Shown piece by piece: positions 1-21,856 of a stretch of DNA of 55,910 nucleotides. Source of the DNA: a bacterium (lineage in GTDB: Bacteria > Bacteroidota > Ignavibacteria > UBA10030); assembly GCA_043803945.1 (NCBI GenBank), contig JAZDJN010000086.1:1-55910 (forward strand), given 5' to 3'. The translations under genes and the position numbers were made by a program. Each line of letters opens with the position of its first letter. The stretch's first letter is position 1. Under the pieces are notes generated by a model. The model was not told the origin of the DNA, did not search any database, and saw nothing but the letters and a program-made list of their open reading frames with translations.

Positions 1-162
1 TTTGAGTGATTCTAATGCCACTTTTGTCTTAAAGATGGCACTGTGTGTACGGCGGATTCTCTTCATTGCTGGATCTCCTATGGGGAAAGGTAACCATTTT
101 TTCCACCTTAGCAAGTTGTCCAGTTTTTGGGGTACAGCTCAGTGTGCATTAAAGGAGTGAGC

Positions 163-402
163 ATGGAAGATCGATGGATTCGCTATAACCCGAGATTAAA
201 ACTGATTGCCAGAACGCTTCGCAACAACATGACACTTGGCGAAATTCTCCTCTGGCATGAGTTAAAAGGAAAGAAATTACTCGGCTATTGCGCGAATGGA
301 TTGAAGCTCGCAGGACACACCCCTTGCGCCAGGCGCATCCGCCGAGGAGGAGAATCCCCTCTCGCCGTAGTTAGAACATGTGGAAGAGAGGAGTTTAGAT
401 AG
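163..402 (+). pseudogene. DUF559-family endonuclease remnant (internal deletion)
   Basis: AAGGAG RBS then ATG at 163. The N-terminus IRYNPRLKLIARTLRNNMTLGEILLWHELKGKKLLGY matches the DUF559 start, but the catalytic FxRQ..D..E core is absent. From 288 another frame reads LREWIEARRTHP, resembling a DUF559 C-terminus. Confidence 0.7.
315..395. repeat. cluster of short REP-like palindromes after the DUF559 remnant
   Basis: ACACACCCCT, perfect inverted repeat TGCGCC-A-GGCGCA (325-337), TCCGCCGAGGAGGA, then AATCCCCTCTC...GAGAGGAG. Confidence 0.4.
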
Positions 403-792
403 AGCTTTCGGAGTGGGATATTAATGAAGCTCTAAGAAGATTTGCGAAAAACACCTTTAATTGCTTTTTCCAAAGGTATTTATTAGAAGAAATTGTGGTA
501 AAAAAATCTTTCTCTACCTCAGTAAAAAGATTATGAAGTTGGATAGCAGACACCAACGGTCGTACTGCTCAGAAGTGATCGCCAAGTCCAGCCATATTGA
601 TTGAATATGTATAAAATCCCCGCAAGATGGCTACTATTATTTCCCGGGCGATGTCTGGCATATTATTGCTCTTGATCTTGATATTAAGAAGCATATTCTG
701 ATTTTAATTCTGAAAAATCATTATCTTACTACTGGCTATTTTTTTAATACAAAATCGCGTTAGGTAACATAGCCGGAAAAGCTATAAAACTA

Positions 793-1284
793 ATGCAACC
801 ACTAGCAAAACCGTCACGAAGAGGGCATACTCACAACAGCTATCCAACTTTTAAGGGATTAAAGCCCGCATCACCAATCAGTTCTCGATCTAAGCAGGCG
901 AATGCAAGCAAGGGGACAAGACATGAACTGCTTTTAATGAAAGAGTTAAAACGATTAGGTCTGAAATTTAAAAGATACATGAAGGATTTACCAGGTAAAC
1001 CAGATATCGTTTTTCCAGAGGAGCGCGTTGCGGTTTTCTGTGATGGAGATTTTTGGCATGGAAAAAATTGGAGAACACTATGCCGAAAGCTTACTAATGG
1101 CACAAATGGTAAGTATTGGAAGTCAAAAATTGCTTGCAATATTAAGCAAGATAAAAGAATAACTAAAATTTTAAGTCTTCAAGGATGGAACGTAATCAGG
1201 CTTTGGGAAACGGATATTAAGGCTAATACCCAAGCGAGCGTACAAAATATAAAACGAGAAATATTATGGGCAAAATTAAATTGA
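793..1284 (+). CDS. vsr: very short patch repair endonuclease
   Basis: ANASKGTRHELLL, DLPGKPDIVF, VAVFCDGDFWHG, GWNVIRLWE motifs; in an operon with a C5 methyltransferase. Confidence 0.92.
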   Translation: MQPLAKPSRRGHTHNSYPTFKGLKPASPISSRSKQANASKGTRHELLLMKELKRLGLKFKRYMKDLPGKPDIVFPEERVAVFCDGDFWHGKNWRTLCRKLTNGTNGKYWKSKIACNIKQDKRITKILSLQGWNVIRLWETDIKANTQASVQNIKREILWAKLN

Positions 1285-2468
1285 AATTGAAGATATCTGG
1301 TCTTGGTAGGAAGCGACCTCAAGTTAATATTCCGATCTCACTCATTGAGCTAGATAATCAAAATCCGCGGCTACCTGATGATTATCAAGGTGGCTCACAA
1401 CTTGATATTATGCAGGTCTTATTTCGTGAATTTGACCTAGAAGAACTTGCTTACTCTATGGCAGAAAACGGATATTTTGATGAAGAACCAATCGTCGTTG
1501 TACCAAAAAAAATATCTTGGAACCTTGATCTGATATCCGATTATTCGGTAGAAGAAATGGAACTAAAGCTAAATAAATTAATTGCTGACAATAAAATTAC
1601 ATTTACGGTTGTTGAAGGTAATCGTCGTACTGCAACTGCAAAACTCTTGGTAGCAGATGAATGGAAACAAAGAATCAAAGTGGGTGCAGATTTCCCAACG
1701 CCGAGAAATAAGGAAGTGCTAAACGATCTCTTGTCCCTCCCTTCTATATGCTATAGTAATAGAAATGAGGTTTCACCATATCTTGGTGTTAGACATATTG
1801 CAGGAATAATGAAGTGGGATGCTTTTGCAAAAGCAAGATATATATCTACGATGATTGAGGCTGAGGCAGATGGTAAGAAAAAAAATATCGAAACTGGTGT
1901 GCGTGAAGTGCAAAGACAAATTGGAGATAGATCAGATACGATAAAGCGCCAATATCTCTATTATAAAATACTCAAGCAAGCACAAGACGAAACTTCTTTT
2001 GATATTAGACCTGTAACAAAAAGGTTTTCACTTATTACATTAGCTTTGAATTATCCATCTATTCGAGAATTTATTGGAGTTTCTTCTTATAAAGATATCG
2101 ATGTCACAAAATACCTCGTCCCACCCAAGAAAATTAATAATCTTGAAACTCTTTTAACGTGGATATATGGGAACGGGAAAGATAAGCAACCAATACTAAC
2201 AGACTCACGAAATATCAGCAAATTATTAGCTCCTGTACTTGCTGATCGTGAAGCAACTGAATATCTGATTAATCATGGAAATCTTACGGAAGCGTATGAA
2301 CGAAGTGGAGGCGATAAAATATTTCTTAAAAAGAAACTGAACGATGCTGCTAGAAATTTATCGAATGCACTTACCGTAGCATATAAGTATAGAAAAGAAA
2401 AAGAGGTTCTATCTTTAATAGATAACTGTTCAAAAACGCTTAATGAACTAATTAAAATGGTATCATGA
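1266..2468 (+). CDS. ParB/Sulfiredoxin-like N-terminal domain protein
   Basis: LDNQNPRL, EPIVV and VVEGNRR motifs of the ParB/Srx superfamily; overlaps vsr. Confidence 0.75.
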   Translation: MGKIKLKLKISGLGRKRPQVNIPISLIELDNQNPRLPDDYQGGSQLDIMQVLFREFDLEELAYSMAENGYFDEEPIVVVPKKISWNLDLISDYSVEEMELKLNKLIADNKITFTVVEGNRRTATAKLLVADEWKQRIKVGADFPTPRNKEVLNDLLSLPSICYSNRNEVSPYLGVRHIAGIMKWDAFAKARYISTMIEAEADGKKKNIETGVREVQRQIGDRSDTIKRQYLYYKILKQAQDETSFDIRPVTKRFSLITLALNYPSIREFIGVSSYKDIDVTKYLVPPKKINNLETLLTWIYGNGKDKQPILTDSRNISKLLAPVLADREATEYLINHGNLTEAYERSGGDKIFLKKKLNDAARNLSNALTVAYKYRKEKEVLSLIDNCSKTLNELIKMVS

Positions 2469-2471
2469 AAT

Positions 2472-3296
2472 ATGGAACCTGCGAATACGGAATCAATTCA
2501 TTCTCTAGCAGATTGGTGTGAATATCTCGTTGCATCGAATCAGCACGAATTGTCAAAAGCTAAAATAACATCTCTGTTGAGTACAAAACAATCAGGGATA
2601 GATGAAGATAAAGTTGACAGTATATTATCCGAGCTTGATAGAAGGATTGTACTATACGGCTCAAGATCCCCTTACACAATATCAAATAACATTCTGATAC
2701 CAAATACTAATTGGAAAGATTGTCCGGAATATATGATGTGCTTGATTTTTTCTCTTACTGGTGTTGTGAAAATAAAAGGACAAAATGATGGGACAAAACT
2801 ATTTGAGAATTTATCAAGGGAGGTAATCATTTCATATTTAGGCGGTGAAGCAGAGGTAATTGGCTTTCCTAATTCAACTTCTCTTACTAAGCAAATTGAA
2901 AATATTTCAAAAAATAGCAATGAGCAACTAGGTCAGAGAAAACCTAAACCAAAAGATAAAGACAAAGGCGTAGATATTATTGCATGGAAATCTCATGGAG
3001 ATACAAGAGATAATCAATTGGTGATTCTTCTCCAGAGCGGCGCGGGGATGCATTTTGATTCGAAGAAACCTATATCTATTACTGCATGGCATGAATTTAT
3101 TAATTGGTCAGCAAATCCTATCCCAGGTATTATTATCCCAATTATAGTACCCACGGATGAATGGATTGAAGTTCGCGATGATTATAACTTAATTTTCGAT
3201 CGAGCTAGAATATTACGAGCTTTAACAAATAGACAGTTTATAAATCGAGAATTGCGACCTCAAATATTGGCATGGTGTAATTCGAGGATAAACTGA
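2472..3296 (+). CDS. hypothetical protein with putative restriction-endonuclease-like (PD-(D/E)xK-type) C-terminal domain
   Basis: KLFENL...KDKGVDIIAW...LVILLQSGAG resembles an Mrr/REase E..D..Q core; 3 nt after the upstream stop and 2 nt before the MTase start. Confidence 0.55.
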   Translation: MEPANTESIHSLADWCEYLVASNQHELSKAKITSLLSTKQSGIDEDKVDSILSELDRRIVLYGSRSPYTISNNILIPNTNWKDCPEYMMCLIFSLTGVVKIKGQNDGTKLFENLSREVIISYLGGEAEVIGFPNSTSLTKQIENISKNSNEQLGQRKPKPKDKDKGVDIIAWKSHGDTRDNQLVILLQSGAGMHFDSKKPISITAWHEFINWSANPIPGIIIPIIVPTDEWIEVRDDYNLIFDRARILRALTNRQFINRELRPQILAWCNSRIN

Positions 3297-3298
3297 AC

Positions 3299-4579
3299 AT
3301 GAGATTTATTGACCTCTTTTCCGGATTAGGTGGATTTCATGCTGCCTTAGCTAACCTTGGCCATCAATGTGTTTTTGCAAGCGAAATCGATGATACTCTT
3401 GTTGAGTTATACAAAAAGAATTTTGGAATCAGACCGGTTGGAGATATACGGAAGGTTAATATTAAAGATATTCCAAAGCATGATATTCTATGCGCCGGAT
3501 TTCCTTGTCAGCCTTTCTCAAAAGCAGGTGATCAAAAGGGACTTGAATGCCCACGCTGGGGTGATTTGATTGAATATGTTATTAAGATAATTAAGATTCA
3601 CCAGCCTCAATTTTTTATCCTCGAAAATGTCCCCAATCTTTTAAAACATGACAACGGCATTACATGGAAGGCTATAAAGAAAAAACTGCAATTAAAAAAC
3701 ACCTACTCAGTAGATGCAAAAATTCTTTCACCGCATAAATTTGGTATACCACAGATTAGAGAGCGTGTATACATTGTTGGTAGCAAGAATAGTCTTGAAG
3801 GTTTCAATTGGCCAGAGCCTCAAGAAACCTATGATCCCAACATTGAAATAATCCTCGATAAAAGACCGAAGAACGCAAAAAGATTAAGCCAACAAGTCGT
3901 CGAATGTGTAAACGTATGGCAAGAGTTTTTAGATAAATATCCGAAGGATCAAAACCTGCCTACATTTCCAATTTGGTCAATGGAGTTCGGCGCAAGCTAT
4001 CCATATACTAAAACAACACCATATAAAAAGCTTAAATCTAAGTATCAAAAGGGTAGACGAATAAAAAACCAATTGACTAAAGTAATTTTAGAAAGTAAGA
4101 GTTACTTATCTCTTCCTTCGCATGCGAGAGAAAAAACTGAGCGGTTTCCGGATTGGAAGATTGAATTTATACGAATGAATCGTGAACTCTACAGAAAGAA
4201 TAGAAAGTGGATCGATGCTTGGCTACCTAAAGTAAAGAAATTTCCTCCAAGCCTTCAAAAGCTTGAATGGAATTGCAATAGCGGAAAAAGGGATATCTGG
4301 CAATATCTAATTCAGTTCCGAGCCTCGGGTGTAAGAGTAAAAAAGAGAACTTCTTCACCTTCACTTGTAGCAATGACATCAACCCAAGTTCCTATCATTG
4401 CATGGGAAAAACGGTATATGACTCCAAGGGAATGCTCTAGGCTTCAGAGTATGGAAAACTTGAAAAATCTCCCCAAACAATCAACAAAGGCTTTCAAGGC
4501 TCTAGGAAATGCAGTTAATGTGCGTTTAGTGGAATTGGTTGCAAATAATCTGTTAAATTATAATCCAGGAAAACACTAA
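3299..4579 (+). CDS. dcm: DNA (cytosine-5)-methyltransferase
   Basis: FIDLFSGLGG (motif I), GFPCQPFS (IV), ENV (VI), PQIRERV (VIII), GNAV (X). Confidence 0.96.
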   Translation: MRFIDLFSGLGGFHAALANLGHQCVFASEIDDTLVELYKKNFGIRPVGDIRKVNIKDIPKHDILCAGFPCQPFSKAGDQKGLECPRWGDLIEYVIKIIKIHQPQFFILENVPNLLKHDNGITWKAIKKKLQLKNTYSVDAKILSPHKFGIPQIRERVYIVGSKNSLEGFNWPEPQETYDPNIEIILDKRPKNAKRLSQQVVECVNVWQEFLDKYPKDQNLPTFPIWSMEFGASYPYTKTTPYKKLKSKYQKGRRIKNQLTKVILESKSYLSLPSHAREKTERFPDWKIEFIRMNRELYRKNRKWIDAWLPKVKKFPPSLQKLEWNCNSGKRDIWQYLIQFRASGVRVKKRTSSPSLVAMTSTQVPIIAWEKRYMTPRECSRLQSMENLKNLPKQSTKAFKALGNAVNVRLVELVANNLLNYNPGKH

Positions 4580-4752
4580 CAATCCAAGCCTTAAGGAGGA
4601 TGAACTCCTACTGTAAGAAATTGGAAGTTAACCATTGTCAGATTATAAGATCGTAGTAACCGAATCGTAGTACTCCCTCTTTCAAGAAAATCACCCTAAT
4701 ATCAATGTCAGGATTTCTCCTCCAAACAATTAAGCAGAGCATCCGAGACTTC

Positions 4753-6816
4753 TCACTTCTTTTCCAGGAATCTCTCCTTATATGTCGGTTCCTTTCCCGC
4801 CAATGTGAGAAACACATCCAGAGGCACAACTTCAAACTCAGGTCCAAGTTTGTCCATGATCGCTTTCATGCGCGCCACATTGCTGTATTCCCGCACATGG
4901 ATGAGCAGGAAATAGGGACGCTTGGCGTTGATTTTTGCCAGCTCTTTTAGATCGGCAACAGCGTCTGCCTCCGGCCGTTCTGGCGAAAGATAATAATCGA
5001 ACGATATGAACGGTTTTCTATCACGCACTGTGAATGTGTACGATGGCGCATAACCATTGATAAAGCCGATCGCATTCGGCATCCCTGTATAGTAGGCATT
5101 CACAATTTCTTTTGTAAGATCGGTATTCCCTTCAACGGTCGCTCCCTCGGAGTAGTCCATGGTCTCAAACACATTGAGATCCAGCACATCCATATACTCT
5201 TTTGCTTTTGCGATGAGTCCGGGAAGCAGATTCGGCGGCACCGCTTTTGGATACATGTAACCGGGTCCCGAAAGACACCCGATGAAATAATCATTCGGGG
5301 TCGCAACTGTATAAAAGTATTCAGCCATCGATGGCGCCATCCAGACATAGTTCATTAGAACTTCCCAGGCACATGGCATTGCCCCGCGCCCCGGCTCTAG
5401 CCACGCCCCCAATCCGATCCCGTCAGTCTGCACACACGTAACATAGACTTTCTTCTCGGGCTTGTAGACCTTCCCTGGAACAACCTGATGATTGTTTTTA
5501 AATTTGAATCCCGCCGACACTGGAACTTTGCTGCTGAAGCTGATATTCGGCAGTGTGTGTAAACCCTCAACCCGGTGTCCGAAATTGGAGGTCAGCGTCA
5601 CATATTCCCGCTCGAGATCTTTGGCATAGGAATGCCAGCCCATGATCATCGAAGCAGGTTTCATTTCGCTCAGGAGTTTACTTGCAATCTGGTATTCAAG
5701 AGTATCTGTCCGGCGGCACGAGAGGTCACTGAAGAAAACCCCTTTCGCAACACCCCAGTCGGCCACACCCGGCTTCATGATGGTGCCGCGCTCGCCTCCC
5801 AGCCAAACGATATACTCTTTATTGCAGCGGTTCCAGTACTGGTCATATGCCCAGGTGTAGATTTGCGCGTCCGACTGGCTGGTAAACTTACCGCGGAAGT
5901 CGGCTACGGGCTTAAGGCCTGCCTTCTCCATCATCGGGATCATCTCTTCGCTCACTACAACAGCGCGCTCGAGTCCCGCGACGGTAAACGCGACAGTGAG
6001 CGATGTGCGGACAGACTTATCCCATACCACATAGCCCTTCACATACTTTCTGAACGCCTGGAATGCAGCCTGGTACGTTGGGAGCTGCGTGAATGTGAAA
6101 TTGCGCTTGTTCTTAAAAAAGTCATAGACCGATTCCGTGTAGGTAAAATCCCACTTCGGCGGATAGATGAAATAGAGGCGGGGTTCATCAGTGTTGGCGA
6201 GTCCCTGCAGACTGATAAGGAAGGCATGCTCGGGAAGTTTACCCTGGATTTCCCAATTGTCTTCCAGCCACATAACGTAAGCCTCTTTGAATCCTGCCTT
6301 TTTCAAAACATACTTCACTGTCGGCCCCGTTACACGAGAAGAGCGGGAAACCGTATAGGTGAGAGTTTCATTATCATCCGAGAGTTCGTAGGAATGGGTT
6401 GTGGCAATCGGTGCGAGTCCTTGCGACCCCCGAAGAGAATATGACTCCTGCAGCTTCAAGAGCTTGCCCCCCTTTTCCCACATTGCTTTGAATTGCCTTG
6501 TGCCACCGACAGGCATAGCAAGCCCCATGAAAACATTTGCAGGCCAAACCCGGTTATGGATCTGTACTTTGTTGACCGTACCGCCCACTTGCAGAGACAG
6601 TGTGTCGAAAAAAGCCCTGCCTGCTCCCCACCGGTGAATGAGGACGACATTCGATGCGCCTTGCATGATCTCGATCGACAGGTTCGCATAGAGTCCGATA
6701 TCGTGGCTCAATTGTGGAATGAGCGCCCACTTTCCATTGAAGCTAGGAATCCCCTGGGCCGCAAGGAGCGAGGGAAGCAGGAATGCGAGAGCATAAACTG
6801 ATAGTGATCTTTTCAT
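4753..6816 (-). CDS. secreted GxGYxYP-family putative glycoside hydrolase
   Basis: Signal peptide MKRSLSVYALAFLLP from ATG 6816; SLQGLAN, MGWH and SGPGYMYP signature. Confidence 0.85.
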   Translation of the reverse strand: MKRSLSVYALAFLLPSLLAAQGIPSFNGKWALIPQLSHDIGLYANLSIEIMQGASNVVLIHRWGAGRAFFDTLSLQVGGTVNKVQIHNRVWPANVFMGLAMPVGGTRQFKAMWEKGGKLLKLQESYSLRGSQGLAPIATTHSYELSDDNETLTYTVSRSSRVTGPTVKYVLKKAGFKEAYVMWLEDNWEIQGKLPEHAFLISLQGLANTDEPRLYFIYPPKWDFTYTESVYDFFKNKRNFTFTQLPTYQAAFQAFRKYVKGYVVWDKSVRTSLTVAFTVAGLERAVVVSEEMIPMMEKAGLKPVADFRGKFTSQSDAQIYTWAYDQYWNRCNKEYIVWLGGERGTIMKPGVADWGVAKGVFFSDLSCRRTDTLEYQIASKLLSEMKPASMIMGWHSYAKDLEREYVTLTSNFGHRVEGLHTLPNISFSSKVPVSAGFKFKNNHQVVPGKVYKPEKKVYVTCVQTDGIGLGAWLEPGRGAMPCAWEVLMNYVWMAPSMAEYFYTVATPNDYFIGCLSGPGYMYPKAVPPNLLPGLIAKAKEYMDVLDLNVFETMDYSEGATVEGNTDLTKEIVNAYYTGMPNAIGFINGYAPSYTFTVRDRKPFISFDYYLSPERPEADAVADLKELAKINAKRPYFLLIHVREYSNVARMKAIMDKLGPEFEVVPLDVFLTLAGKEPTYKERFLEKK

Positions 6817-7218
6817 TAGAAGTGCTCCATGTAACAATTTTGTTGAAGGGAAAGAACAGAATTAAGTTACCACTGTTGCTGCAGGAAGGCAAGAGTGTTG
6901 TTGTGTATTGAATGTACATCATACGATTTACATGCTCCTCTAACCTCAGGCTTGCTGTTAGCATCGGAATCTTGTACTATTGTTAGAGAAATTTATGTCT
7001 CCGGCAAGAAACACTTCTACAATTGAAAGTATCAATCATAGATGCACCACTAGTACAAACGATGATGAATAAGATTCTTAACGGTTGATTTCACACATGT
7101 AATGGAAATGTAAGTTGAACAAGATATGAGGTTTGACTACATTTCAAACGATTACTGATTGGGATTTAAGGGCCATACCGTCGGCAACTGATTTGAAATA
7201 ATCTCACCGGATGTGTAA

Positions 7219-9789
7219 ATGGGATTTACGATAGAGAAGATTTGGCAAAAAGCCGATTTTAGACCTAATAGCAATCAAGAGAAGGCAATACGGCATGTTG
7301 ATGGCCCCCTCTTTCTCACTGCAGGTCCAGGCTCCGGGAAAACTCGTGTTCTCTTGTGGCGCACATTGAATCTGATTGTTTTCCATGATATCAAACCAGA
7401 AGAAATCTTTCTTGGCACGTTCACAGAAAAGGCAGCCTATCAACTCAAAGAAGGTCTAAAGACTCTCCTTGCAATCGTCACTAACGAGACTGGCAAACCT
7501 TTCGACCTGGCAAAGATGTCGGTGGGAACTGTGCATTCCATCTGCCAACACATCTTATCAGACAGAAAATTCACCGAAGAACTGAAGCGCCCAAGAGCTC
7601 CGATACTGCTGGATGAGTTGGGCCAGTACTTCCACCTGTACAATCCGAAAAATTGGACAAAGATCATTCAAGCTGGAGGATTCGATAACCAGGAAATAGC
7701 GAACAAGATGGTGAGCACATACATAGATGAACGGGAATCTGGGTCAAGGCACATCGCAGTTACGCATTGTATCAGCCTGTTCAATCGATTATCCGAGGAG
7801 TGTTTGGATCCGATTGAGACGAAGAAGAAGATTAGAGATGTCAATGTGCGAACACTTCTAGACATGTATGCTGCCTATTTAGCGAACCTTTCAAGTCTGG
7901 ATATATTTGGCGCTGTTGATTTTTCACTTCTGCAACAAAAGGCATTGGGCGTACTCGACAAGAACTTACAATCAGAACATATCTATAAGCATGTCATCAT
8001 TGACGAGTATCAGGATACGAATCACGTTCAAGAGCAACTCTTCTTCAAGCTGGCAAAAGGAACGAAGAACATTTGCATCGTCGGGGACGATGATCAGGCG
8101 TTGTACCGATTTCGTGGTGCAACGGTGGAGAATCTCGTGGAGTTCGAAGAACGCTGCAAGCGAAACCTCGGTATAATGCCAAAGCGTATCGACCTGGAAA
8201 CGAACTACCGCTCTCGTATGCCCATCGTACATTACTGCACCGATTTTATTGGACGATGTGATTGGAAAAGAGAAAACGGAGTAGGTTTTCATCGCATTCA
8301 TGATAAGGAGATCAAACCGAATCGAAAAGACAATCAGCCATGTGTTATAGCATCTACACCTGGGAATCCGGAAGAGGTTTATTCAGAGATTGTTAACTTG
8401 GTGAAAAGAATTATCAAGCAGAAGAAGGTGCACGATCCAAATCAGATTGCGTTCTTGTTCCCCTCACTCAAAGGTAACAGTAAAGCAATTGGTTTCAAGG
8501 AGGCTCTGGAGAATGCCGGACTCAAGGTCTATGCACCTCGTGCAGGTCGCTTCCTCGATTTGGAGGAATCGAAAGCTGTGTTCGGCCTTTTCCTGCATGT
8601 GTTTGGCAAACCGAAATCAGATGGTCTCTTCAGCCAGGGACTCCGTGAATTTCATTTTTGGATGAAGGCGTGTGCTGACCTTGCCGAAGATCTTGTGGAA
8701 AAAGACAAACAACTGAGCGGATTCATCGCTGACAAGCAAGCAGAGTTGGAAACCATTGGGAAAGACTACAGTGCCCTCATCGCCAGTGTTAACAGGCATC
8801 ATTGGTCTCTCGATATGGACTTCACACTTGAAATGCGTCGGAAGCTTGCTGAATCAGCGAGCTTGTCCGACAAAGCAAAGAAGAGCCTCATCAGCCGATA
8901 CTTCCAGAGAGTGATCGAGGAACGTGCCAAGGCAGGAAGACCGTTTAAACTCAAGTACATCATCAATCGGGCAACGTCGCTTGACTGGAGTGTGCTTGAT
9001 CTCTTCTACCAGCTCAATGGCTTTAAACATTTTAGGGATTCATACGACATCGCTGAAGAGGAAAAAGACGAAGGACCGCTGTGCAATCTGGGGATCATCA
9101 GCCAGTACCTTGGACGTTTTATGGAGCAGTTTGCCTCGATGATTACCGCCAGTTATCTTGAAGATCAGAAGTTTCAGAAGCAGTTCTTCCTCTCGTACGT
9201 CTATGCACTCTACCGCAGGCAGGAATCGGAATTTGAGGACGAGGATGATCCGTTCCCGAAAGGAAGAATCCAATTTCTCACGATTCATCAAGCAAAGGGT
9301 TTGGAATTCCCCATTGTAATCCTCGGTAATCCTCGGAAACGAGAGTGGCCTGCATCTCAGGTGGAGAAAATTGCACGTAAGTTAACGGGGAGAGGTAGTG
9401 AACCAATTGACCGTATCAGCGAATTTGATAACATGCGCATGTTTTATGTTGCTCTCTCTCGACCCAAGAACCTGCTCATCATACCCCATTTCAAAGGGAA
9501 AGGACAGCATTCCTCGCGACCATTCAGAGAAATGCTCAAAGAAGCTATCACTAGAATCCCCGACTTTGATGTTTCAACCTTGCCTGAAATTGAAGAGTAC
9601 CCTGACGATTTGGGGAAGAACTATTCCTACACCGGCGACTACCTTCTTTACCAGAAGTGTCCCCGGCAGTACATGGTGTTCAAAAAGTACGGATTTGTTC
9701 CCTCACGCTCACAGACGATGTTTTTCGGCAGCCTTGTTCATCAGACAATCGAAGATCTTCATAATCTCTTCATCCGGAATCGCTCATGA
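7219..9789 (+). CDS. UvrD/REP-family SF1 ATP-dependent helicase ending in the N-terminal part of a PD-(D/E)xK nuclease domain
   Basis: AGPGSGKT, DEYQD, VGDDDQALYRFRGA, NYRS, TIHQAKGLEF, FYVALSR; C-terminal YSYT..YQKCPRQY..FGSLVHQTIE. Confidence 0.93.
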   Translation: MGFTIEKIWQKADFRPNSNQEKAIRHVDGPLFLTAGPGSGKTRVLLWRTLNLIVFHDIKPEEIFLGTFTEKAAYQLKEGLKTLLAIVTNETGKPFDLAKMSVGTVHSICQHILSDRKFTEELKRPRAPILLDELGQYFHLYNPKNWTKIIQAGGFDNQEIANKMVSTYIDERESGSRHIAVTHCISLFNRLSEECLDPIETKKKIRDVNVRTLLDMYAAYLANLSSLDIFGAVDFSLLQQKALGVLDKNLQSEHIYKHVIIDEYQDTNHVQEQLFFKLAKGTKNICIVGDDDQALYRFRGATVENLVEFEERCKRNLGIMPKRIDLETNYRSRMPIVHYCTDFIGRCDWKRENGVGFHRIHDKEIKPNRKDNQPCVIASTPGNPEEVYSEIVNLVKRIIKQKKVHDPNQIAFLFPSLKGNSKAIGFKEALENAGLKVYAPRAGRFLDLEESKAVFGLFLHVFGKPKSDGLFSQGLREFHFWMKACADLAEDLVEKDKQLSGFIADKQAELETIGKDYSALIASVNRHHWSLDMDFTLEMRRKLAESASLSDKAKKSLISRYFQRVIEERAKAGRPFKLKYIINRATSLDWSVLDLFYQLNGFKHFRDSYDIAEEEKDEGPLCNLGIISQYLGRFMEQFASMITASYLEDQKFQKQFFLSYVYALYRRQESEFEDEDDPFPKGRIQFLTIHQAKGLEFPIVILGNPRKREWPASQVEKIARKLTGRGSEPIDRISEFDNMRMFYVALSRPKNLLIIPHFKGKGQHSSRPFREMLKEAITRIPDFDVSTLPEIEEYPDDLGKNYSYTGDYLLYQKCPRQYMVFKKYGFVPSRSQTMFFGSLVHQTIEDLHNLFIRNRS

Positions 9790-10631
9790 AGAAGGAACTA
9801 TCGCAGCAAGAAGTTCTCAATGAGATCAAAGAAGCCTTTGAGCTGAACTATGAACAGCTGCGTTTGGAAGGTGGGCATGCACTCACGGAGGATGTCAAAC
9901 GCCTTGCTCTTCAGATGGTATTGCTCTACTGGAAGAAAATGCCGGATGTTGCCGAGAACATCACCGACACAGAGGTGAAGCTCTCACTTCCGGAACAGAA
10001 GACCCCCCAAGGCCGCAAATTTTCCATCGAAGGAATTGTCGATATCATTCGTGAACAGGATGAAACGTGGATGTACGATATCAAGACCCACGATGGGGAT
10101 TATGTAAGAGACAACATCGATCTCTACGAGAAACAGCTCAACGTCTATTCGTATATCTGGAAGGGGCTGCGAGGAGAGCCGCTGGACCATACGGCTATTA
10201 TTGCACTATCTTTCCCGCAGTCACTTAGTGATGCAGTGAGGACAGGAGATCAGCAACAGATAGACCGAGAGCTTCCCAAATGGAAGCCGCTGATAGAGGT
10301 TCCGTTTGACCAGGGACATGTCGAAGAGACGATCAAGGAATTCGGCAAGGTTGTGGATAGAATAGAAGATAACCAGTTTTCGCCACCTCCGGTGAGAAAG
10401 CTCAAAGAGAGGATAGGATCTGAACTGTTCGTTACAAGAGTATGCCGTAACTGCGACGCCCGTTTCTCCTGCGCTTCCTTTCGTGAGTATGCGCTTGGCA
10501 CCAATGCCCGATTTGTTTCCGGTTACAAGAAGTACATTGAAGACCTCGGTCCAGAGATTGATGTTGAGGATAGGAAGACTACCAATCTTGAAACAGCAAA
10601 CATCCCCGAGTCTGTGGACACATCCGATTGA
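9786..10631 (+). CDS. PD-(D/E)xK nuclease (RecB/AddB/Cas4-like), C-terminal part
   Basis: TEV..GIVDII..YDIKT..QLNVY core and CRNC-x5-C cysteines; ATGA overlap with the helicase. Confidence 0.85.
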   Translation: MKKELSQQEVLNEIKEAFELNYEQLRLEGGHALTEDVKRLALQMVLLYWKKMPDVAENITDTEVKLSLPEQKTPQGRKFSIEGIVDIIREQDETWMYDIKTHDGDYVRDNIDLYEKQLNVYSYIWKGLRGEPLDHTAIIALSFPQSLSDAVRTGDQQQIDRELPKWKPLIEVPFDQGHVEETIKEFGKVVDRIEDNQFSPPPVRKLKERIGSELFVTRVCRNCDARFSCASFREYALGTNARFVSGYKKYIEDLGPEIDVEDRKTTNLETANIPESVDTSD

Positions 10632-10655
10632 TTCATTATCTATGAAGAGAGAACC

Positions 10656-12569
10656 ATGCCACACGAGCGACTGAAACCAACTTTGACACTTGATTTAGAG
10701 AGGATCGAAGAACTCAAGCGCATCCTGCCTGAAGGGTTTGCAGATGGGAAGATCAATTGGGAAACGATGAAACAGGCACTTGGCGAACACCTTGAAGACG
10801 AAGGCGCCGATGCCGAGCACTTCGGCCTCTTCTGGCCCGGCAAGCGTGAAGCCCGTCGGATGGCGGCGATACCGAGCAAGGGCACACTCGCGCCTGTTCC
10901 GGGTGAGGGAATTGACGAAGAGACAACCCGCAACATCTTCATCGAAGGCGAAAACCTTGAAGTGCTCAAGCTTCTCCAGAAGAGCTACGCTGGCAAGATT
11001 AAGATGATTTATATTGATCCCCCCTACAATACGGGTAATGACTTTGTATATGAAGACGACTTCCGTGAGCCGTTGGAAGAATACTTGCGAAGAACGGACC
11101 AAGTTGATGAAGAAGGCAAACCGTGGACAACAAACACCCGTGCTGAGGGTCGTTATCATTCCAAATGGTTAAGCATGATGTTCACACGCTTGAAGTTAGC
11201 AAGAAACCTTTTAAAAGGTGATGGAGTGATAGTTGTTAGTATTGATAATAATGAATTGCACAACCTTCGTGAGATGATGAACGAAGTTTTTGGAGAAGAA
11301 AATTTCGTCGGACTTATCGTTGTCCAAAGTAATCCAAGAGGAAGACAGTCTGAACGCTTCCTTGCAACCGTACATGAGTATTTGATCCTTTATGCCAAGG
11401 ATATCGATTGGTGTAAAATCGCTGGAGCTGCGTTGTCCGAGAAACAACTTTCAGACTTCAAATACGATGACGGCGACAGGAAAAAGTATAGACTTCTTGG
11501 GCTCAGACAACGTGGTTCTGCTTCAAGGAGACAAGATAGACCAAAAATGTATTATCCAATCTATGTAGATCCCAAAACCGCCACTGTCTCTCTTGAAAAA
11601 ACTTCAAATCATAAGATTGAAGTATTACCTAAGAAGTCCTCGGGAGAAGAAGGAAGATGGATGTGGTCAAAAGAAAAAGTACAAAAAAATTTGTCTATTG
11701 TCGTTAGCCGGTTGATAAGTGGAAGGGATGAATGGGACATCTTTATTAAGGATTTCCTCCATACTGAGGAGGGTGAGCAAAGAACCAGAAAATTCAAAAC
11801 CATTTGGGATGAAAAAGAGCTAAACTATCAAAATGGCACTCAAGAAGTTAAAGAACTTCTAGGCCCGAATGTAATGGAGTTTCCCAAACCAACCTCTTTG
11901 TTAAGAAAAATTATCTCGTTGGCTGATGCACCGGATGAAATATACTTGGATTTCTTTGCGGGATCTGGAACGACTGGGCATGCGTTGTTTCAGACTAATT
12001 TGGCTGATGAAGGAAATCGTAAGTTCATCCTTATTCAGCTAGATGAACCCTGCAAACAGGATTCTGCCGCCTACAAAGCTGGTTACAAAACAATAGCAGA
12101 TATTTGTAAGCAGAGAATCAAGAAGGCAGCAAAAGAGCTCAAAAAAAACAACACAAATTCTGATTTGGGCATCAAAGTCTTCAAACTCGCTAAATCTAAT
12201 TACAAAATATGGCAAGACTACGACGGCGCCAACCTACCTGAACTCGAATCCAAGCTCGACCTCTTTGAGACACCACTCGCCGAAGACTGGAAGCCTGAGA
12301 ATCTTCTCACAGAAATCCTACTCCTTGAAGGCTTCCCACTCGACAGTAAGATCGAGAAACTGAATGACCACAAAAAGAACGCCGTGAATCACGTCAGCTC
12401 CGACTTCTGTGAGCACAAGCTCCTCGTCTGTCTTGATGCAAAAATCGGCCAAGAGACTATCAATGCCTTGAAATTTGAAGAGGATGACATCTTTGTTTGC
12501 TTGGATAGCGCACTCACAGACCAGGATAAGATGCGACTGGCAGATGTGTGTAAATTGAAAACTATATAA
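10656..12569 (+). CDS. mod: type III restriction-modification methyltransferase subunit (N6-adenine)
   Basis: IEGENLEVLKLL, IYIDPPYNTG, FPKP, DFFAGSGTT; upstream of Res. Confidence 0.95.
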   Translation: MPHERLKPTLTLDLERIEELKRILPEGFADGKINWETMKQALGEHLEDEGADAEHFGLFWPGKREARRMAAIPSKGTLAPVPGEGIDEETTRNIFIEGENLEVLKLLQKSYAGKIKMIYIDPPYNTGNDFVYEDDFREPLEEYLRRTDQVDEEGKPWTTNTRAEGRYHSKWLSMMFTRLKLARNLLKGDGVIVVSIDNNELHNLREMMNEVFGEENFVGLIVVQSNPRGRQSERFLATVHEYLILYAKDIDWCKIAGAALSEKQLSDFKYDDGDRKKYRLLGLRQRGSASRRQDRPKMYYPIYVDPKTATVSLEKTSNHKIEVLPKKSSGEEGRWMWSKEKVQKNLSIVVSRLISGRDEWDIFIKDFLHTEEGEQRTRKFKTIWDEKELNYQNGTQEVKELLGPNVMEFPKPTSLLRKIISLADAPDEIYLDFFAGSGTTGHALFQTNLADEGNRKFILIQLDEPCKQDSAAYKAGYKTIADICKQRIKKAAKELKKNNTNSDLGIKVFKLAKSNYKIWQDYDGANLPELESKLDLFETPLAEDWKPENLLTEILLLEGFPLDSKIEKLNDHKKNAVNHVSSDFCEHKLLVCLDAKIGQETINALKFEEDDIFVCLDSALTDQDKMRLADVCKLKTI

Positions 12570-12612
12570 AAAGATTTCCCGGTGATTTCTGTTCTGAATT
12601 GAATCCTGAAGA

Positions 12613-12774
12613 GTGGAAGAACTTGAGAAGAAATACGACAAGCAGTTTGCCCTCGTGTTTGAGGCTATTCGACAGTTTATGACGCCCCCCGAGATGCCAT
12701 CAAAACGCTATATTGGATTTGGAGCGGAAGAACCCAAAGGATCGTATTTTACAAGAAAAGGGAGGGGGTATTAG
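12613..12774 (+). pseudogene. orphan C-terminal fragment of an ORF6N-type protein
   Basis: Reads [36 protein letters not shown], paralogous to [35 protein letters not shown] in the next gene. Confidence 0.75.
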
Positions 12775-12775
12775 T

Positions 12776-13324
12776 TTGACTGCCATAATTCCCGCTGAGA
12801 CTATCGAAAAACGTATACTTCTCATTCGTGGACAGAAAGTGATGCTTGATCGCGATTTGGCTGAATTGTACTGTGTAACGACGAAACGTCTGAAGGAACA
12901 AGTTCGCCGTAATCGCAAGCGTTTCCCGCCGGATTTTATGTTGGAACTGACCGATGAAGAGTTTGCTGTTTTGAGGCCGCATTTTGCGACCTCAAAAAAA
13001 ACTCGCGGCGGCACAAGATACACACCGTATGCGTTTACTGAACAAGGGGTTGCGATGCTCTCATCCGTGCTCCATAGCGATCGTGCTGTGCAGGTAAACA
13101 TTGAGATTATGCGTGCATTCGTGAGAATTCGAGAGCTTCTTTCTACACATAAGGATTTTGCAGGAAAGCTTGAACAATTAGAAAAGAAATATGATGCTCA
13201 ATTTAAAGTTGTGTTTGAAGCCATCCGCCAATTGATGATACCACCCGAAAAATCCAAACGAGAAATCGGTTTTCGAGTCAAAGAATCGAAGGCACCATAT
13301 CGAGCGAAACGCAGGAAATCATGA
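12776..13324 (+). CDS. ORF6N (KilA-N-like) DNA-binding domain protein
   Basis: [43 protein letters not shown]; likely TTG start at 12776 after GGAGG (ORF track start 12713). Confidence 0.9.
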
Positions 13325-16266
13325 GCAAGCCAATACATCTCAAATTTGAAGACAATCAGGAGCACCAGCTTCTTGCTATCGAGAGTACGATCAGACTCTT
13401 TAATGGATTACCGCAAAGCGAGACTGCTTTCGCCCTTGGCGATGAAATCGTACCCAACCTCCCGCCAGAAACTGTACTGGATGATAACTGGCTTCTGGCG
13501 AATCTCAATTCCGTACGTGAGAAGAACGGCTTCGAACATCAACTCTCGCTCGATGTTGAGGATGACTTTGAGCTTGATGGTATCAGCAACGATTCATGGC
13601 GATATCCAAGCTTCACGCTGGAGATGGAAACCGGTACAGGGAAGACATACGTCTATCTTCGCACCATCTTCGAATTGAAGAAGCGCTACGGCTTCAGGAA
13701 ATTCATTGTCGTTGTGCCGAGTATTGCCATCTATGAGGGAGTGATCAAAAACTTTACAATCACCCGCTCTCATTTCCGAACACTGTATGGCAATGAGCCG
13801 CTTCACCTCACACCGTATGACGGCCAACAGTTGAGTAAGCTGAGGAATTTTGCCTCTTCGACATTCACAGAGATCTTGGTCATCACATTGGATTCGTTCA
13901 ACAAAAGGACCAACTTGATCTACAAAGCATCGGAAAAGCTACCAGGTGAGCGGAAACCATTCGAGTATATTCAGGAAACCCGCCCGATCATGATTCTGGA
14001 TGAACCTCAGAATATGGAGAGTTCGCTTGCACGATCGGCCTTGCGTACCCTGCATCCACTTCTTGCGTTTCGTTACAGTGCCACACATCGCACAAGTCCC
14101 AATCTTATCTATCGGCTTACGCCGGTGGAGGCTCTTAAGAGAAACCTTGTGAAGCGTATCCAGGTATTCGGTGTGAAAGAAGAATTCAATTACGGTCAAA
14201 CGTCACTCGCACTTGAGTCGCTCGCGAGTTATGGGTTGAGTGCAAAGATACGGACGTTGATCAATGATAAAGGTGTTACCAAAGAAGCCATTCTCGAAGT
14301 GAAAAAAGGCGATGATCTATACCAGAAGACGAAAATGGATGCGTTACGTAATGCCGGTTTCATTATAGAGGAAATCGATCGAAAGCTTGGCATTGTCATT
14401 TTCCAGAACCAGCGGAAGCTCTCCATCAGTGATTCAACAGTGATGTCAAAGGAGGAAGTGTTCAAAACCCAGATTGAAGAGACTGTTGAACGTCACCTCC
14501 AGGCTCAAGAATTCTTCAAGCCCAAAAATATCAAGGTGCTGTCGCTTTTCTTTATCGACAAGGTAGCAAACTACACGGAGGATAAAGGAATCGTACGTCT
14601 ATTGTTTGATAAGACATTTGAGCGGATGAAGAGGCGATCCGACCTGTTTAAGGATTTCAAAGCCGGAGAGGTTCGCAGTGCGTACTTCGCCAAGAAAAAA
14701 ACCCGACAAGGACAAGAGGAAGCGATCGACACATCTGGAAGGAACGAAGAAGAACGCAAAGCTGAGAAGGAAGCGTTCAAGCTCATCATGAGAGACAAGG
14801 AGCGTCTGCTTTCTTTTGATGAGAAAGTGTCGTTCATCTTTGCACATTCAGCGTTGGGTGAAGGCTGGGACAATCCCAACGTTTTCCAGATCTGTACGCT
14901 TCGAGAAACAAGATCAGAGTTACGAAAACGGCAGGAGATAGGACGTGGGCTGCGTCTATGTGTAAACCAGGATGGTCTGCGACTTAACGATGAGGATATA
15001 AACATCCTAACGGTAGTTGCTAATGATAGCTATGAGTCTTACGTGCGGGCTTTGCAGATAGAGTATACTGAGGATGGCGAAATGGCGCCCCCTCCACCTA
15101 CGAATGCGCGGAAGGAGAAAGCGAAGCGGAACGAGAAGGTATTCCGGAGTCGGGACTTCAAGGAATTCTGGAAAAAGCTTTCAACGCGAACACGATATGT
15201 TATCAACCTCAACACGGATGAGTTGGTTGAGAAGAGTATTGCTACTCTGAAGGCAACAACGTTCCCTGAACCGCAGATCGTTGTCACAAAGGGTAAGTTC
15301 GTCATTACTCAATACACATTGGAGCTTGAGTTAGCAGCGAACGGTACAGCCCGCATCAAAGTGACGATCACAGATACAGCGGGGAGAACGGATTCGGGTG
15401 TGAGACCTTACAGTCTTAGGTCTGATTTTCAGAGGATTCTTCATGATGAGGCCTTGAAAGGGTATCGCATTCTATCAATCAAAGAAGATGGGATTGACTC
15501 AGAGGTCGAGTTCGATAATGGACAGGTGCTTACCAAGTTTAATCCGCTTCGATTTGATAGTCAGGCCGGTCAGAAGATTGTCTCATCGGTTGCAACAGTA
15601 GTTGAATCAACGTTCCCTGTCTTCAACTTTGTAGATAGAGTTGCTCATGAGACCGGTTTGTCACGTCCAACGGTGAATAAAATCTTCAAGGGAATGCCGC
15701 AGGCGAAGAGGGAACTCATTTTCAAAAACCCTGAAAGCTTCACGAACACATTTCTCTCAAAGGTGAAAGAGGTACTTGCCGACCACATTGCATCAAAGAT
15801 CGAGTACGTGATGGAGGATGCGATCATTGGGTATGATCTTGAAGCTCTCTTCCCACCTGAGAAGAAGTATCCACAAAAGGAAGTCATTCCAGGCAATCAA
15901 CGCTCTATCTACGATCAAGTGCAATACGATTCCGAGGTTGAACTAAAATTTGTTCAAAATAGGTTGCAGCATGAAGACGAGGTCATTCTGTATTTTAAAT
16001 TCCCTGGGAATTTCAAGATCGGAATTCCGAAGATCATCGGGAACTACATACCGGACTGGGGCGTAGTCCGCTGGACTCCGGATAAGCAGATAAAACTCCA
16101 TCTCATCCGAGAGACAAAGGGATCACTCGATCCAAACCTGCTACAATACCCACAGGAGAAGAGAAAGATTGCATGCGCTACGAAGCACTTCAAAGCCCTC
16201 GGAGTTGACTATAGGCAGATCACTGAAGATATTCCCTTTTGGTGGAAAGGAGGAACTGAAACGTGA
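13321..16266 (+). CDS. res: type III restriction endonuclease subunit (SF2 helicase + nuclease)
   Basis: [39 protein letters not shown]-terminal YIPDW..RETKG. Confidence 0.95.
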
Positions 16267-16916
16267 AAACGACACCCCTATCAAGCCGGAAAGGACTCAA
16301 CTACGATCGGGACCAAGACCTCATAGCAATGTATAACTATCCCAGGCAGGTGCAGAAGGCAATTCAGGAGATTCAGGGTATTGCCGGAATGATTGTGTAC
16401 GATGGTGTAGTAAATGAAGAAGAAATATCATTCCTCAGTCAGTGGTTGAAAACGCATACTCAGCTTGCGACAAGCTATCCTCTTGCAGATCTGAAAAGTC
16501 TTTTCGAGGAGATTACAAAGGACGGGGTGGTATCCCCTGAAGAACGCAAGCAACTTTTTGACTTTCTGAAGAACATTGCATCTGGAACAAAAAGCAGCCC
16601 AGTTGTAGAAGGGATTTTTGCTGCCAAGCCTCGTATCACATTTAAGACTCGTCAGTTTCTTTTCACAGGAGAAATGGAGTTCGGATCTCGTGAAAAGGCT
16701 GTAGACGCGGTTGAGGTGCGAGGTGGTATTATCTGCAATAGCTGTACACAGAAAACGCATTACCTCATTGTTGGTAACCTTGGAAGCGATGCCTACAAGT
16801 ACGGACGTTTTGGTACTAAGATCGAGAAGGCGTTAACTCTTCAGAAGCAGAAGAAATCGGAGATCCAAATCGTCCATGAACACGACTTTGTGGTGGCAGT
16901 GATGAAGCAAGCATAG
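16263..16916 (+). CDS. BRCT-domain protein with helical (TerB-like) N-terminus
   Basis: FLFTG..SRE..RGG..THYLIVG..GTKIEKA BRCT pattern; N-terminal DGVVNEEE / DGVVSPEE repeats; GTGA overlap with res. Confidence 0.8.
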   Translation: MKTTPLSSRKGLNYDRDQDLIAMYNYPRQVQKAIQEIQGIAGMIVYDGVVNEEEISFLSQWLKTHTQLATSYPLADLKSLFEEITKDGVVSPEERKQLFDFLKNIASGTKSSPVVEGIFAAKPRITFKTRQFLFTGEMEFGSREKAVDAVEVRGGIICNSCTQKTHYLIVGNLGSDAYKYGRFGTKIEKALTLQKQKKSEIQIVHEHDFVVAVMKQA

Positions 16917-21846: not shown

Positions 21847-21856
21847 TAGTAGACCT

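Follow-up and report, generated by a model that had tools for sequence, protein, structure and literature searches.

A probable mobile, restriction-modification-like anti-virus cassette that combines a ParB-type protein, a predicted nuclease and a C5 DNA methyltransferase

The genes at positions 793 to 4579 of the window, by which we mean the whole 55,910-nucleotide stretch of DNA analysed here, probably form a mobile, restriction-modification (RM)-like cassette that acts as an anti-virus system by a previously undescribed mechanism. The core of the cassette consists of three genes, encoding a ParB-type protein (P0002), a nuclease subunit (P0003) and a C5-cytosine DNA methyltransferase (MTase), with Vsr as an optional member. 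The best explanation, which we hold tentatively, is that of an RM-like defence cassette in which the MTase would mark host DNA and a ParB-nuclease complex would cut DNA that is unmarked. All four open reading frames lie on the + strand; the Vsr and ParB genes overlap by 19 nt and the later gaps are 3 nt and then 2 nt:

793..1284, + strand: Vsr, very-short-patch T:G mismatch endonuclease, 163 aa (TIGR00632 110 bits, cut-off 97.85; PF03852 E 2e-20)
1266..2468, + strand: ParB-type protein P0002, 400 aa (predicted model, fold comparison)
1617..1628, + strand: GNRR of P0002, the ParB Box II or GxxR phosphate-binding motif (conservation)
1887..1991, + strand: helix-turn-helix of P0002, aa 208-242 (model helices, KorB alignment)
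2472..3296, + strand: nuclease subunit P0003, 274 aa (predicted model, fold comparison)
3299..4579, + strand: C5-cytosine DNA methyltransferase, 426 aa (PF00145 E 5e-72; TIGR00675 above cut-off)

Consistent with the first-pass annotation of an AT-richer block, the GC content of 793-4579 is 0.363 compared with 0.470 in the remainder of the window, and none of 238 segments of the same length to the right of the cassette is equally GC-poor (lowest 0.427). A promoter scan gave 9 hits where 15 are expected by chance, i.e. below chance, and a repeat scan of 1-7300 found short chance-level repeats only.

On its predicted model (pLDDT 87), P0002 has the architecture of clamp-type ParB proteins such as KorB and Noc, with a ParB/Srx NTP fold (aa ~17-184), a KorB-like helix-turn-helix domain extending to aa ~330 and a predicted C-terminal helical hairpin (aa 350-399). 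Fold matches at Z 8-9 comprise KorB (8qa9; Z 9.3, rmsd 4.2, 204/208 residues aligned, across aa 18-351), M. xanthus ParB (7bnr; Z 9.0, rmsd 2.9, 96 residues aligned), Noc (7nfu; Z 8.5, rmsd 5.7, 200/213 residues aligned) and PadC, while Foldseek alone returned nothing for this model at E up to 0.001. The helix-turn-helix is formed in the model by helices H208-219 and H225-242, and the KorB DNA-binding domain 1r71 aligns with P0002 over 111 of its 116 residues (Z 4.4, rmsd 3.3); conservation of the recognition helix is only partial. VEGNRR corresponds to residues 116-121, of which G118, N119, R120 and R121 are invariant in 120 of 120 sequences in one set and 69 of 69 in another, and the other NTP-pocket residues are likewise invariant. 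GNRR stands here in place of GERR, and the catalytic positions of P0002 look altered. These results confirm the ParB/Srx domain that had been read from the sequence. DndB and DUF262, named in the first-pass annotation as defence proteins with such domains, were not found among the fold matches; the closest were KorB, Noc and ParB, which carry a DNA-binding domain. With the clamp-type CTPases (KorB, Noc, ParB/Spo0J, pNOB8 ParB) P0002 shares the NTP fold, helix-turn-helix domain, C-terminal helices and invariant GxxR, a Box II motif described in a 2025 survey of the ParB fold that also reports no reliable rule for predicting the bound nucleotide from sequence (10.1101/2025.10.10.680097). In contrast to those proteins, its partner is a nuclease and no parA gene, as expected of a ParABS partition system, is found among the genes of the window or the recurrent neighbours of 80 loci.

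P0003 is a predicted nuclease, composed on its model (pLDDT 96) of an N-terminal winged helix (aa 6-79) and a PD-(D/E)XK catalytic domain (aa ~100-262). The divergent nuclease suspected at 2472-3296 therefore does show a nuclease fold on the predicted model. Foldseek identified FokI (E 1.5e-4) and MspJI (E 2.2e-4), AspBHI is also among the fold matches, and comparison by VIA gave AF1548 (Z 8.7, rmsd 3.0, 112 aligned), FokI (Z 7.9, rmsd 3.9, 135 aligned) and, for the winged helix, 2vqc (Z 8.4, rmsd 2.0, 66 aligned). The catalytic domain of SdaI, an enzyme with the same architecture of winged helix plus PD-(D/E)XK domain, aligns at Z 7.1 (rmsd 3.6, 123 aligned). Within the family E112 and D168 are present in all 147 sequences, Q188 in 137 and K198 in 139. 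The cassette thus resembles an orthodox type II RM system in its adjacent MTase gene and in a REase-fold nuclease with catalytic residues, but the canonical QxK is missing: Q188 is followed by x-G/A (consensus QCAAG) and the conserved Lys, K198, lies ten residues on. It likewise differs from the modification-dependent Mrr/MspJI enzymes, whose D...(Q/E)xK motif it lacks. The nuclease family comprises 1,542 representatives at 50% identity (E up to 1e-10) in at least nine phyla, judging by record titles, is present in about 2% of complete E. coli genomes and is not covered by any Pfam, NCBIfam or PADLOC model; PADLOC was blank for P0003 and nine relatives, and neither Pfam (E up to 1) nor NCBIfam matched P0002 or P0003. 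PHROGs yielded families of unknown function only, and a search through 8,000 candidates, 582-2,000 aa long, turned up no fused nuclease (weak evidence). PDB sequence searches gave no real match, a hit to ribosomal S13 being a short-motif coincidence. A match to RE_HaeII in the Atlas scored 0.83, under the Atlas lead threshold.

The ParB-type protein and the nuclease are closely tied to each other. In each of the 73 loci for which 1.1 kb or more of sequence was available (71 intact, 2 frameshifted) the nuclease gene lies directly 3' of the ParB gene, and the correlation of their sequence distances (rho 0.83 over 63 triads) indicates that the two co-evolve. They are also predicted to form a two-subunit complex, as the first-pass annotation had proposed: the complex model scores 0.64, the best of three controls 0.01, and it passes a mark that 116 of 157 solved complexes but only 2 of 215 mismatched pairs attain, a rough calibration on our own alignments. 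Runs share at least 93% of contacts, with partner pLDDT of at least 85. The closest predicted contacts on the ParB side include F254, S255 and S314, all invariant, and the predicted interface buries the winged-helix recognition helix of the nuclease (aa 45-65).

The fourth gene is a C5 MTase, as first assigned, with intact PCQ and ENV motifs and a long conserved target-recognition region that may resemble that of M.AluI; searches with its variable region in plasmid and phage records did not lead to any enzyme that has been characterised. The two middle genes are conserved with it: of 58 well-flanked loci, 57 have a C5 MTase gene no more than 8 kb away, and in 46 the distance to the ParB gene is 1.5 kb or less. 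For SAGCTS the observed/expected ratio rises from 0.39 in the genes of the cassette through 0.56 in those of MORC/Z1/DUF4420 to 0.73 in the flanks, while that of its C-to-T product falls, in the same order, from 1.32 through 1.21 to 1.09, suggesting that this MTase family is probably active. When 2,077 hexamer classes are ranked by depletion, the top four all contain AGCT. Plain AGCT was rejected as the target, since WAGCTW is not depleted (observed/expected ~1), and the erosion of sites suggests an AGCT-cored target, probably SAG(m5C)TS. Deamination alone explains the depletion of SAGCTS, which is no demonstration of restriction. Vsr is an accessory repair gene for m5C deamination. The Vsr at the head of the block, read initially as part of a four-gene operon, is genuine (above the TIGR00632 cut-off) but not an integral member, since only 12 of the 58 well-flanked relatives carry one.

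While the pair is constant, its methylase is not. The same pair partners unrelated methylases (HaeIII-like, D12, N6/N4) and sometimes none, an intact pair occurring with no methylase within 8 kb on each side at locus L063 and within 6 kb at L003. Co-variation of the MTase with the pair is weak (rho 0.33 and 0.39), as is that of the nuclease with the MTase variable region (rho 0.34). At locus L026, the nuclease is 43% identical to P0003, nearer than 55 of 59 loci with the same MTase, yet only 3 nt separate its pair from the coupled gene of an M.HaeIII-like enzyme. No convergence of specificity residues was seen among the GGCC-type pairs: L026 shows 7 and 4 such positions, below the maxima of 10 and 8 in the null, in a comparison with only three P2-type rows. 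In five cassettes of HaeIII type GGCC shows no depletion, but counts there are too small to judge. The swapping of methylases makes it probable that the pair is something other than a classical site-specific restriction enzyme, and because those methylases have different targets, self and non-self are probably told apart through the mark or the methylase rather than a fixed site read by the nuclease. Both C5 partner types, from their predicted targets, would make R-G-m5C-Y.

Other neighbours vary as well. MORC/Z1/DUF4420 genes lie beside 17 of 80 relatives (16 of the 58 well-flanked loci, leaving 42 without), with at least nine changes on a quick ParB tree, and any other neighbour is shared by four loci at most. 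RM operons of MORC/paraMORC, Z1 helicase, DUF4420, C5 MTase and Vsr have been described (Iyer et al. 2008, PMC2292703), and the accessible part of that paper does not mention the ParB-nuclease pair. Operons of this kind are headed by the same MTase family as that of the window. Unlike in those operons, no MORC, Z1 helicase or DUF4420 gene flanks the window cassette. A paraMORC-like ATPase is encoded 18 kb from the cassette, where it accompanies another MTase.

A distantly related, homologous triad is found in the defence hotspot of P2 phages (WPhi), with 104 of 5,426 E. coli genomes carrying it. HMM searches matched its ParB-type protein (E 8e-47) and nuclease (E 8e-24), and it shares with the window cassette the gene order and a C5 MTase. 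Identity is about 28%, no Vsr is annotated in the P2 hotspots in contrast to the window, and the P2 MTase is short, convergent and M.HaeIII-like whereas that of the window is the long AGCT-core type. The triad appears in the tables of Rousset et al. 2022 (PMC9122126) as system 2 of Table S5B, pFR107 from the E. coli W prophage WPhi (orf98-orf96-mth, 'RM-like'), and it is listed among the tested systems of Table S2B and not among the validated ones of Table S2A. This one published test used a panel of eight coliphages, lambda, P1, T7 and T4 among them, on a K-12 host, and in the accessible part of the paper the nuclease is labelled hypothetical with no mechanism given. The host was MG1655, which is mcrBC+. 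McrBC cleaves RmC and is lethal to cells that express methylases of this kind (PMC2614495). Phage SIAC10 bears the same triad as WPhi; protection has been reported for AC1 lysogens only, not SIAC10. E. coli W has been described as restriction-minus solely from its missing hsd/mcr/mrr genes. Pizer et al. reportedly observed in 1968 that T-even phages are restricted by E. coli W and C, though not by K-12, on account of prophage W.

How the cassette might work can be outlined from these parts. The MTase, whose fold and motifs are evident, would mark host DNA at a putative SAG-m5C-TS target. The predicted docking site for the winged helix of the nuclease consists of two patches, both invariant, on the DNA-binding domain of the ParB subunit, which may bind NTP through GNRR. 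As in KorB, Noc and ParB, NTP use could let this subunit close on and move along DNA, or could release the nuclease, and the complex would then cut DNA without the mark; Vsr, where present, would repair m5C deamination. This reading is favoured by the fixed order and co-evolution of the pair, the complex model, the near-constant C5 MTase with its signs of activity and the hotspot position of the P2 triad. Against it speak the test in which the WPhi triad was not validated, the observations on SIAC10 and E. coli W, the intact pairs with no methylase nearby, the weak co-variation with the MTase, the missing QxK and the altered look of the ParB catalytic positions. A more specific version, which we consider unlikely as it stands, is that a ParB-type clamp loads, slides and carries or unleashes the nuclease unless it meets the host methyl mark, so that one module could serve methylases with different targets.

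Somewhat unlikely, too, is that the pair serves as a guard or as an abortive back-up system. In that case the methylase would be the RM core or a decoy, whether or not MORC/Z1/DUF4420 accompanies it, and the ParB subunit would hold the nuclease shut by covering its recognition helix, in line with the predicted burial of helix 45-65. It is similarly somewhat doubtful that the trigger is a phage that disturbs NTP pools or blocks the methylase, whereupon host and phage DNA would be destroyed, as proposed for PD-lambda-5 ('RM+Abi'). The joining of the pair to unrelated methylases or to none fits such a guard, as does the coming and going of MORC/Z1/DUF4420, which is predicted to act as a restriction module for this MTase family, and a narrow trigger would account for the negative eight-phage test. 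The P0002 N-terminus also matches PD-Lambda-5_A (PADLOC E 1e-11), from a prophage-borne, validated anti-phage system of ParB/HEPN protein and DNA methyltransferase (Vassallo et al. 2022, PMC9519451). However, most loci and the P2 cassettes have no other restriction enzyme to guard, and Pfam and PADLOC profiles revealed no HEPN or other known Abi effector. Membership in PD-lambda-5 itself was rejected: the homology is N-terminal only, lying within aa 15-223, genes 2 and 3 gave no HEPN hit, and the effector is a separate winged-helix PD-(D/E)XK protein rather than a fused HEPN.

A type IV system, in which the winged helix and an Mrr-like domain cut phage DNA with foreign modification and the methylase merely co-travels, is improbable. 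It is favoured by MspJI and AspBHI among the nuclease fold matches, by MspJI adjoining a C5 MTase gene and vsr and yet being modification-dependent (PMC2938202), and by GmrSD coupling a ParB-type domain to a nuclease (PMC12839542), but the near-obligate linkage to an apparently active MTase, the use of the recognition helix as a protein interface in the complex model and the presence of T4 in the negative phage panel argue against it. Least probable of all is an ordinary heterodimeric type II enzyme whose winged helix or helix-turn-helix reads the methylase site and whose ParB fold is an NTP-independent scaffold or operon regulator, for while SdaI and the repressor KorB offer precedents, the GNRR and other NTP-pocket residues are invariant, the L026 pair is coupled to an M.HaeIII-like enzyme despite its closeness to the window nuclease, and specificity residues were not seen to converge in the few GGCC-type pairs compared.

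Literature searches found no description of this ParB-nuclease-methylase system. None of the DefensePredictor, PADLOC-candidate and Rousset preprints uses the word 'ParB' in its main text, and a tested homologue in their supplements is possible. The PADLOC candidate PDC-M38A matches P0002 at aa 112-397 (E 6e-18), but its profile, at 715 aa, is about twice the length of P0002, and the name was not found in the literature. In the Atlas the whole P0002 fold (TM 0.66-0.67 by query) is also fused to AAA_15 ATPases. Equivalence to GmrSD, DndB or AIPR is not supported, as there is no DUF262, DndB or AIPR Pfam match at E up to 1 and profile comparison with one AIPR protein gave a probability of 0.1%.

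NTP-dependent restriction enzymes run on helicase or AAA+ motors, and ParB-type clamps have roles in segregation, nucleoid occlusion and gene control. The word 'restriction' is absent from the main text of the 2025 ParB-fold survey (10.1101/2025.10.10.680097). For the P2 cassette, listed as 'RM-like' but unexplained, our analysis offers a domain anatomy, a predicted interface, a set of catalytic residues and a putative site of methylation. If clamp-driven restriction is true, the WPhi triad could account for the T-even restriction of 1968. Overall, a clamp-gated nuclease, if true, would be a new motor or switch for restriction-modification, and should CTP prove to be its nucleotide, restriction would be powered by CTP.

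The first-pass annotation had proposed a low-GC Vsr / ParB-like / restriction-enzyme-like / C5-methyltransferase (MTase) operon as a candidate NTP-clamp-assisted restriction-modification (RM) system. The window does hold four coupled genes in an AT-richer block: genes 1 and 2 overlap by 19 nt, the following gaps measure 3 nt (2/3) and 2 nt (3/4), and GC content is 0.363 versus 0.470 elsewhere, with none of 238 windows of equal length to the right of the cassette having GC as low.

793-1284, + strand: gene 1, Vsr, score above curated cut-off
1266-2468, + strand: gene 2, ParB-type protein, no model matched in Pfam or NCBIfam, fold by model
2472-3296, + strand: gene 3, putative PD-(D/E)XK nuclease, no model matched in Pfam or NCBIfam, fold by model
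3299-4579, + strand: gene 4, C5 MTase, score above curated cut-off

Among the loci fetched, the nearest relatives carry the label Bacteroidetes (76% and 70%). A DUF559 (Vsr-like) fragment with apparent frame loss past ~55 codons lies at 127-402 (+), upstream of the AT-richer block. Other defence-type loci in the window include a UvrD/PcrA-like helicase gene (856 aa) followed by that of a PD-(D/E)XK protein (281 aa; 7219-10631, +), between which a PDDEXK_1 domain is apparently divided, and a type III RM locus (10656-16916, +) in which an ORF6N gene separates Mod (10656-12569) from Res (13321-16266) and an unassigned 217-aa gene comes last. A further locus (21304-26224, -) encodes another C5 MTase together with a response-regulator-like protein and a paraMORC-like ATPase whose C-terminal domain is histidine-kinase-like, resembling RM-linked two-component-like systems as described in the available text of 10.1101/2020.08.26.268516.

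The predicted model of gene 3 (pLDDT 96, from 147 sequences) bears out the proposed nuclease fold: it comprises a winged helix (aa 6-79) followed by a PD-(D/E)XK domain that, by fold comparison, resembles FokI, MspJI, AF1548, SdaI and BspD6I. E112 and D168 occur in all 147 sequences, Q188 in 137 and K198 in 139, and we infer that the putative active site is intact, its lysine being displaced. Family size is 2,486 representatives at E <= 0.001 and 1,542 at 1e-10. The gene 2 model (pLDDT 87, from 120 sequences) matches clamp-type ParB proteins across the nucleotide and DNA-binding domains in structure alignments with KorB (8qa9; Z 9.3, rmsd 4.2, 204/208 residues aligned), Noc (Z 8.5, rmsd 5.7, 200/213 residues) and M. 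xanthus ParB (Z 9.0, rmsd 2.9, 96 residues). While these Z values are modest, the top rows all belong to one superfamily, and a search independent of Foldseek ranked KorB, PadC, pNOB8 ParB and sulfiredoxin first. Together with the invariant GNRR of the family, which equals Box II GxxR, this agrees with the earlier assignment of a ParB/Srx domain. According to the available text of a 2025 survey (10.1101/2025.10.10.680097), the same fold binds CTP, ATP or GTP without a predictive rule. Clusters of 716-730 aa also carry the whole ParB-type fold (TM 0.66-0.67 by query) in fusion with AAA_15 ATPases; these are probably the PDC-M38A family.

Genes 2 and 3 behave as a unit. From a genome scan in which the best 80 of 95 relatives were kept, 7 loci had too little downstream DNA and were excluded; the nuclease gene lies directly downstream of the ParB gene in all 73 others (69 automatic; L010 via tblastn; L050, where the two genes apparently overlap at length; and L065 and L082, frameshifted). 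A C5 MTase lies within 8 kb in 57 of 58 well-flanked loci (minimum flanks of 3 kb on the upstream and 3.5 kb on the downstream side), 54 of them with the same MTase family (at least 300 bits), such that both middle genes are conserved with a C5 MTase; Vsr is present in 12/58. Across 63 triads (pair plus MTase), pairwise distances gave a rho of 0.83 for ParB-nuclease versus 0.33 for ParB-MTase and 0.39 for nuclease-MTase, values that are descriptive as pairs are non-independent. Complex prediction for ParB and nuclease scored 0.64, the best of 3 controls reaching 0.01, against a mark that is passed by 116/157 solved complexes and 2/215 mismatched pairs and applies roughly to this pair. Runs share at least 93% of contacts (partner pLDDT at least 85) and place nuclease residues 44-57 on ParB residues 252-259 and 308-316, patches that include the invariant F254, S255, S314 and R315. 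In sequence searches neither chain had a solved relative, which makes memorisation by the predictor a less likely reason for the pass. The predicted interface supports binding of the two proteins to each other. Two convergent pairs occur in one GenBank record (L088, MT835579.1; 5947-8140, +, and 8686-12702, -), where a Z1-like helicase gene (by its motifs) precedes one pair and the variable region of the cassette MTase family lies farther along.

To infer the target of the MTase, which may resemble M.AluI, we compared hexamer counts in 61 cassettes with synonymous-codon shuffles after dropping two near-duplicate loci. The four most depleted of 2,077 hexamer classes all hold AGCT, led by CAGCTG (8 observed versus 41 expected). 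For SAGCTS, a pattern picked after inspection of this depletion, observed/expected was 0.39 in cassettes (51/60 loci under expectation), 0.56 in genes of the MORC module (13/14) and 0.73 in flanks, and its C-to-T product reached 1.32, 1.21 and 1.09, respectively; WAGCTW stayed at ~1. Such loss with C-to-T gain is what long-term m5C at SAGCTS should leave behind. Because GAGCTC in cassettes is not below flanks and AAGCTC is depleted too, the precise target is uncertain or a mixture of sites; SGGCCS is somewhat low as well (0.63 versus 0.79). The site-depletion signal speaks for methylation, not for restriction.

The computed evidence for the cassette consists of its folds and motifs, the linkage and co-evolution of its genes, an interface with model support and the erosion of a site with an AGCT core. 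Its putative activities would be to bind NTP, act as a clamp, cleave DNA that methylation does not protect, and serve in defence. Our leading, still tentative reading is that the ParB-type protein and nuclease may form an NTP-gated nuclease arm that spares methyl-marked DNA. MORC, Z1 or DUF4420 genes, a predicted restriction module, accompany 16/58 well-flanked loci, are scattered on a quick ParB tree (10 changes, no fewer than 9 of them forced) and also form operons headed by the same MTase family without the pair. The pair may instead serve as a guard or abortive back-up, which seems to us rather unlikely. We give a lower probability to the pair acting as a type IV nuclease. Partner MTases vary, and no MTase was found in the flanking DNA examined of L003 (6 kb) and L063 (8 kb each side). 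A close relative pair (L026) is coupled to an M.HaeIII-like enzyme (418 bits against 1dct), the pair of L039 lies 0.4 kb from a HaeIII-like MTase of 635 aa (10373-12280) whose N-terminal 276 aa match no known family and are possibly a nuclease, and two distant plasmid-collection pairs adjoin a D12 adenine MTase (L004) and an N6/N4 MTase (L001). Among pairs with HaeIII-type MTases, a search for convergent residues found none. That the pair and MTase form an ordinary type II enzyme is the least probable account, our main argument being that swapping of MTase partners disfavours a classical site-specific enzyme. A relative of the L039 N-terminal region begins at 6557 of L023. Elsewhere, a pair lies amid two C5 MTases, an MTaX1-Mrr_N-GmrSD_N fusion, an AAA_15/DUF3696 ATPase and an AIPR gene (L038, 2247-11754), and a Neorhizobium plasmid (L002, 80-8797) clusters an MTase, a GmrSD_N protein, Z1, a PD-(D/E)XK-motif protein, a pair and an HNH gene.

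The triad is also phage-borne, in a hotspot between genes A and Q of P2-like phages and in one phiCTX-like phage, with homology in both proteins (ParB E 1e-38 to 1e-47, nuclease E 1e-24 to 1e-32). The version in WPhi, a prophage of E. coli W, is found in 104/5,426 complete E. coli genomes. In the available text of Rousset et al. 2022 (PMC9122126), triad representatives are listed as system 2, 'RM-like system', whose 1,136 occurrences form a lumped cluster that bears HEPN labels too, the cloned WPhi triad pFR107 is among tested, non-validated systems, and no protection is reported for a lysogen of SIAC10. Phage SIAC10 carries the same triad as WPhi. The pFR107 test could be a false negative, considering the small panel, native promoter and McrBC versus RmC-forming methylases. 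In the portions available of the respective papers, one PARIS homologue required induction (PMC9122126), McrBC acts against RmC-forming methylases (PMC2614495) and E. coli W is without mcrBC and mrr (PMC3032704). WPhi orf44 (L092, 14617-15516), the sole other clear accessory gene of WPhi besides the tiny orf92, would confound tests of restriction by WPhi. The nearest validated system, PD-lambda-5, has a HEPN effector, unlike the nuclease of the cassette (PMC9519451, available text). Our literature search, covering preprints by their main text, found no description of a ParB-nuclease-MTase system. Overall, the cassette is real and widespread and its mechanism is undescribed; the one catalogue entry, as 'RM-like', comes with a negative result for a distant relative.
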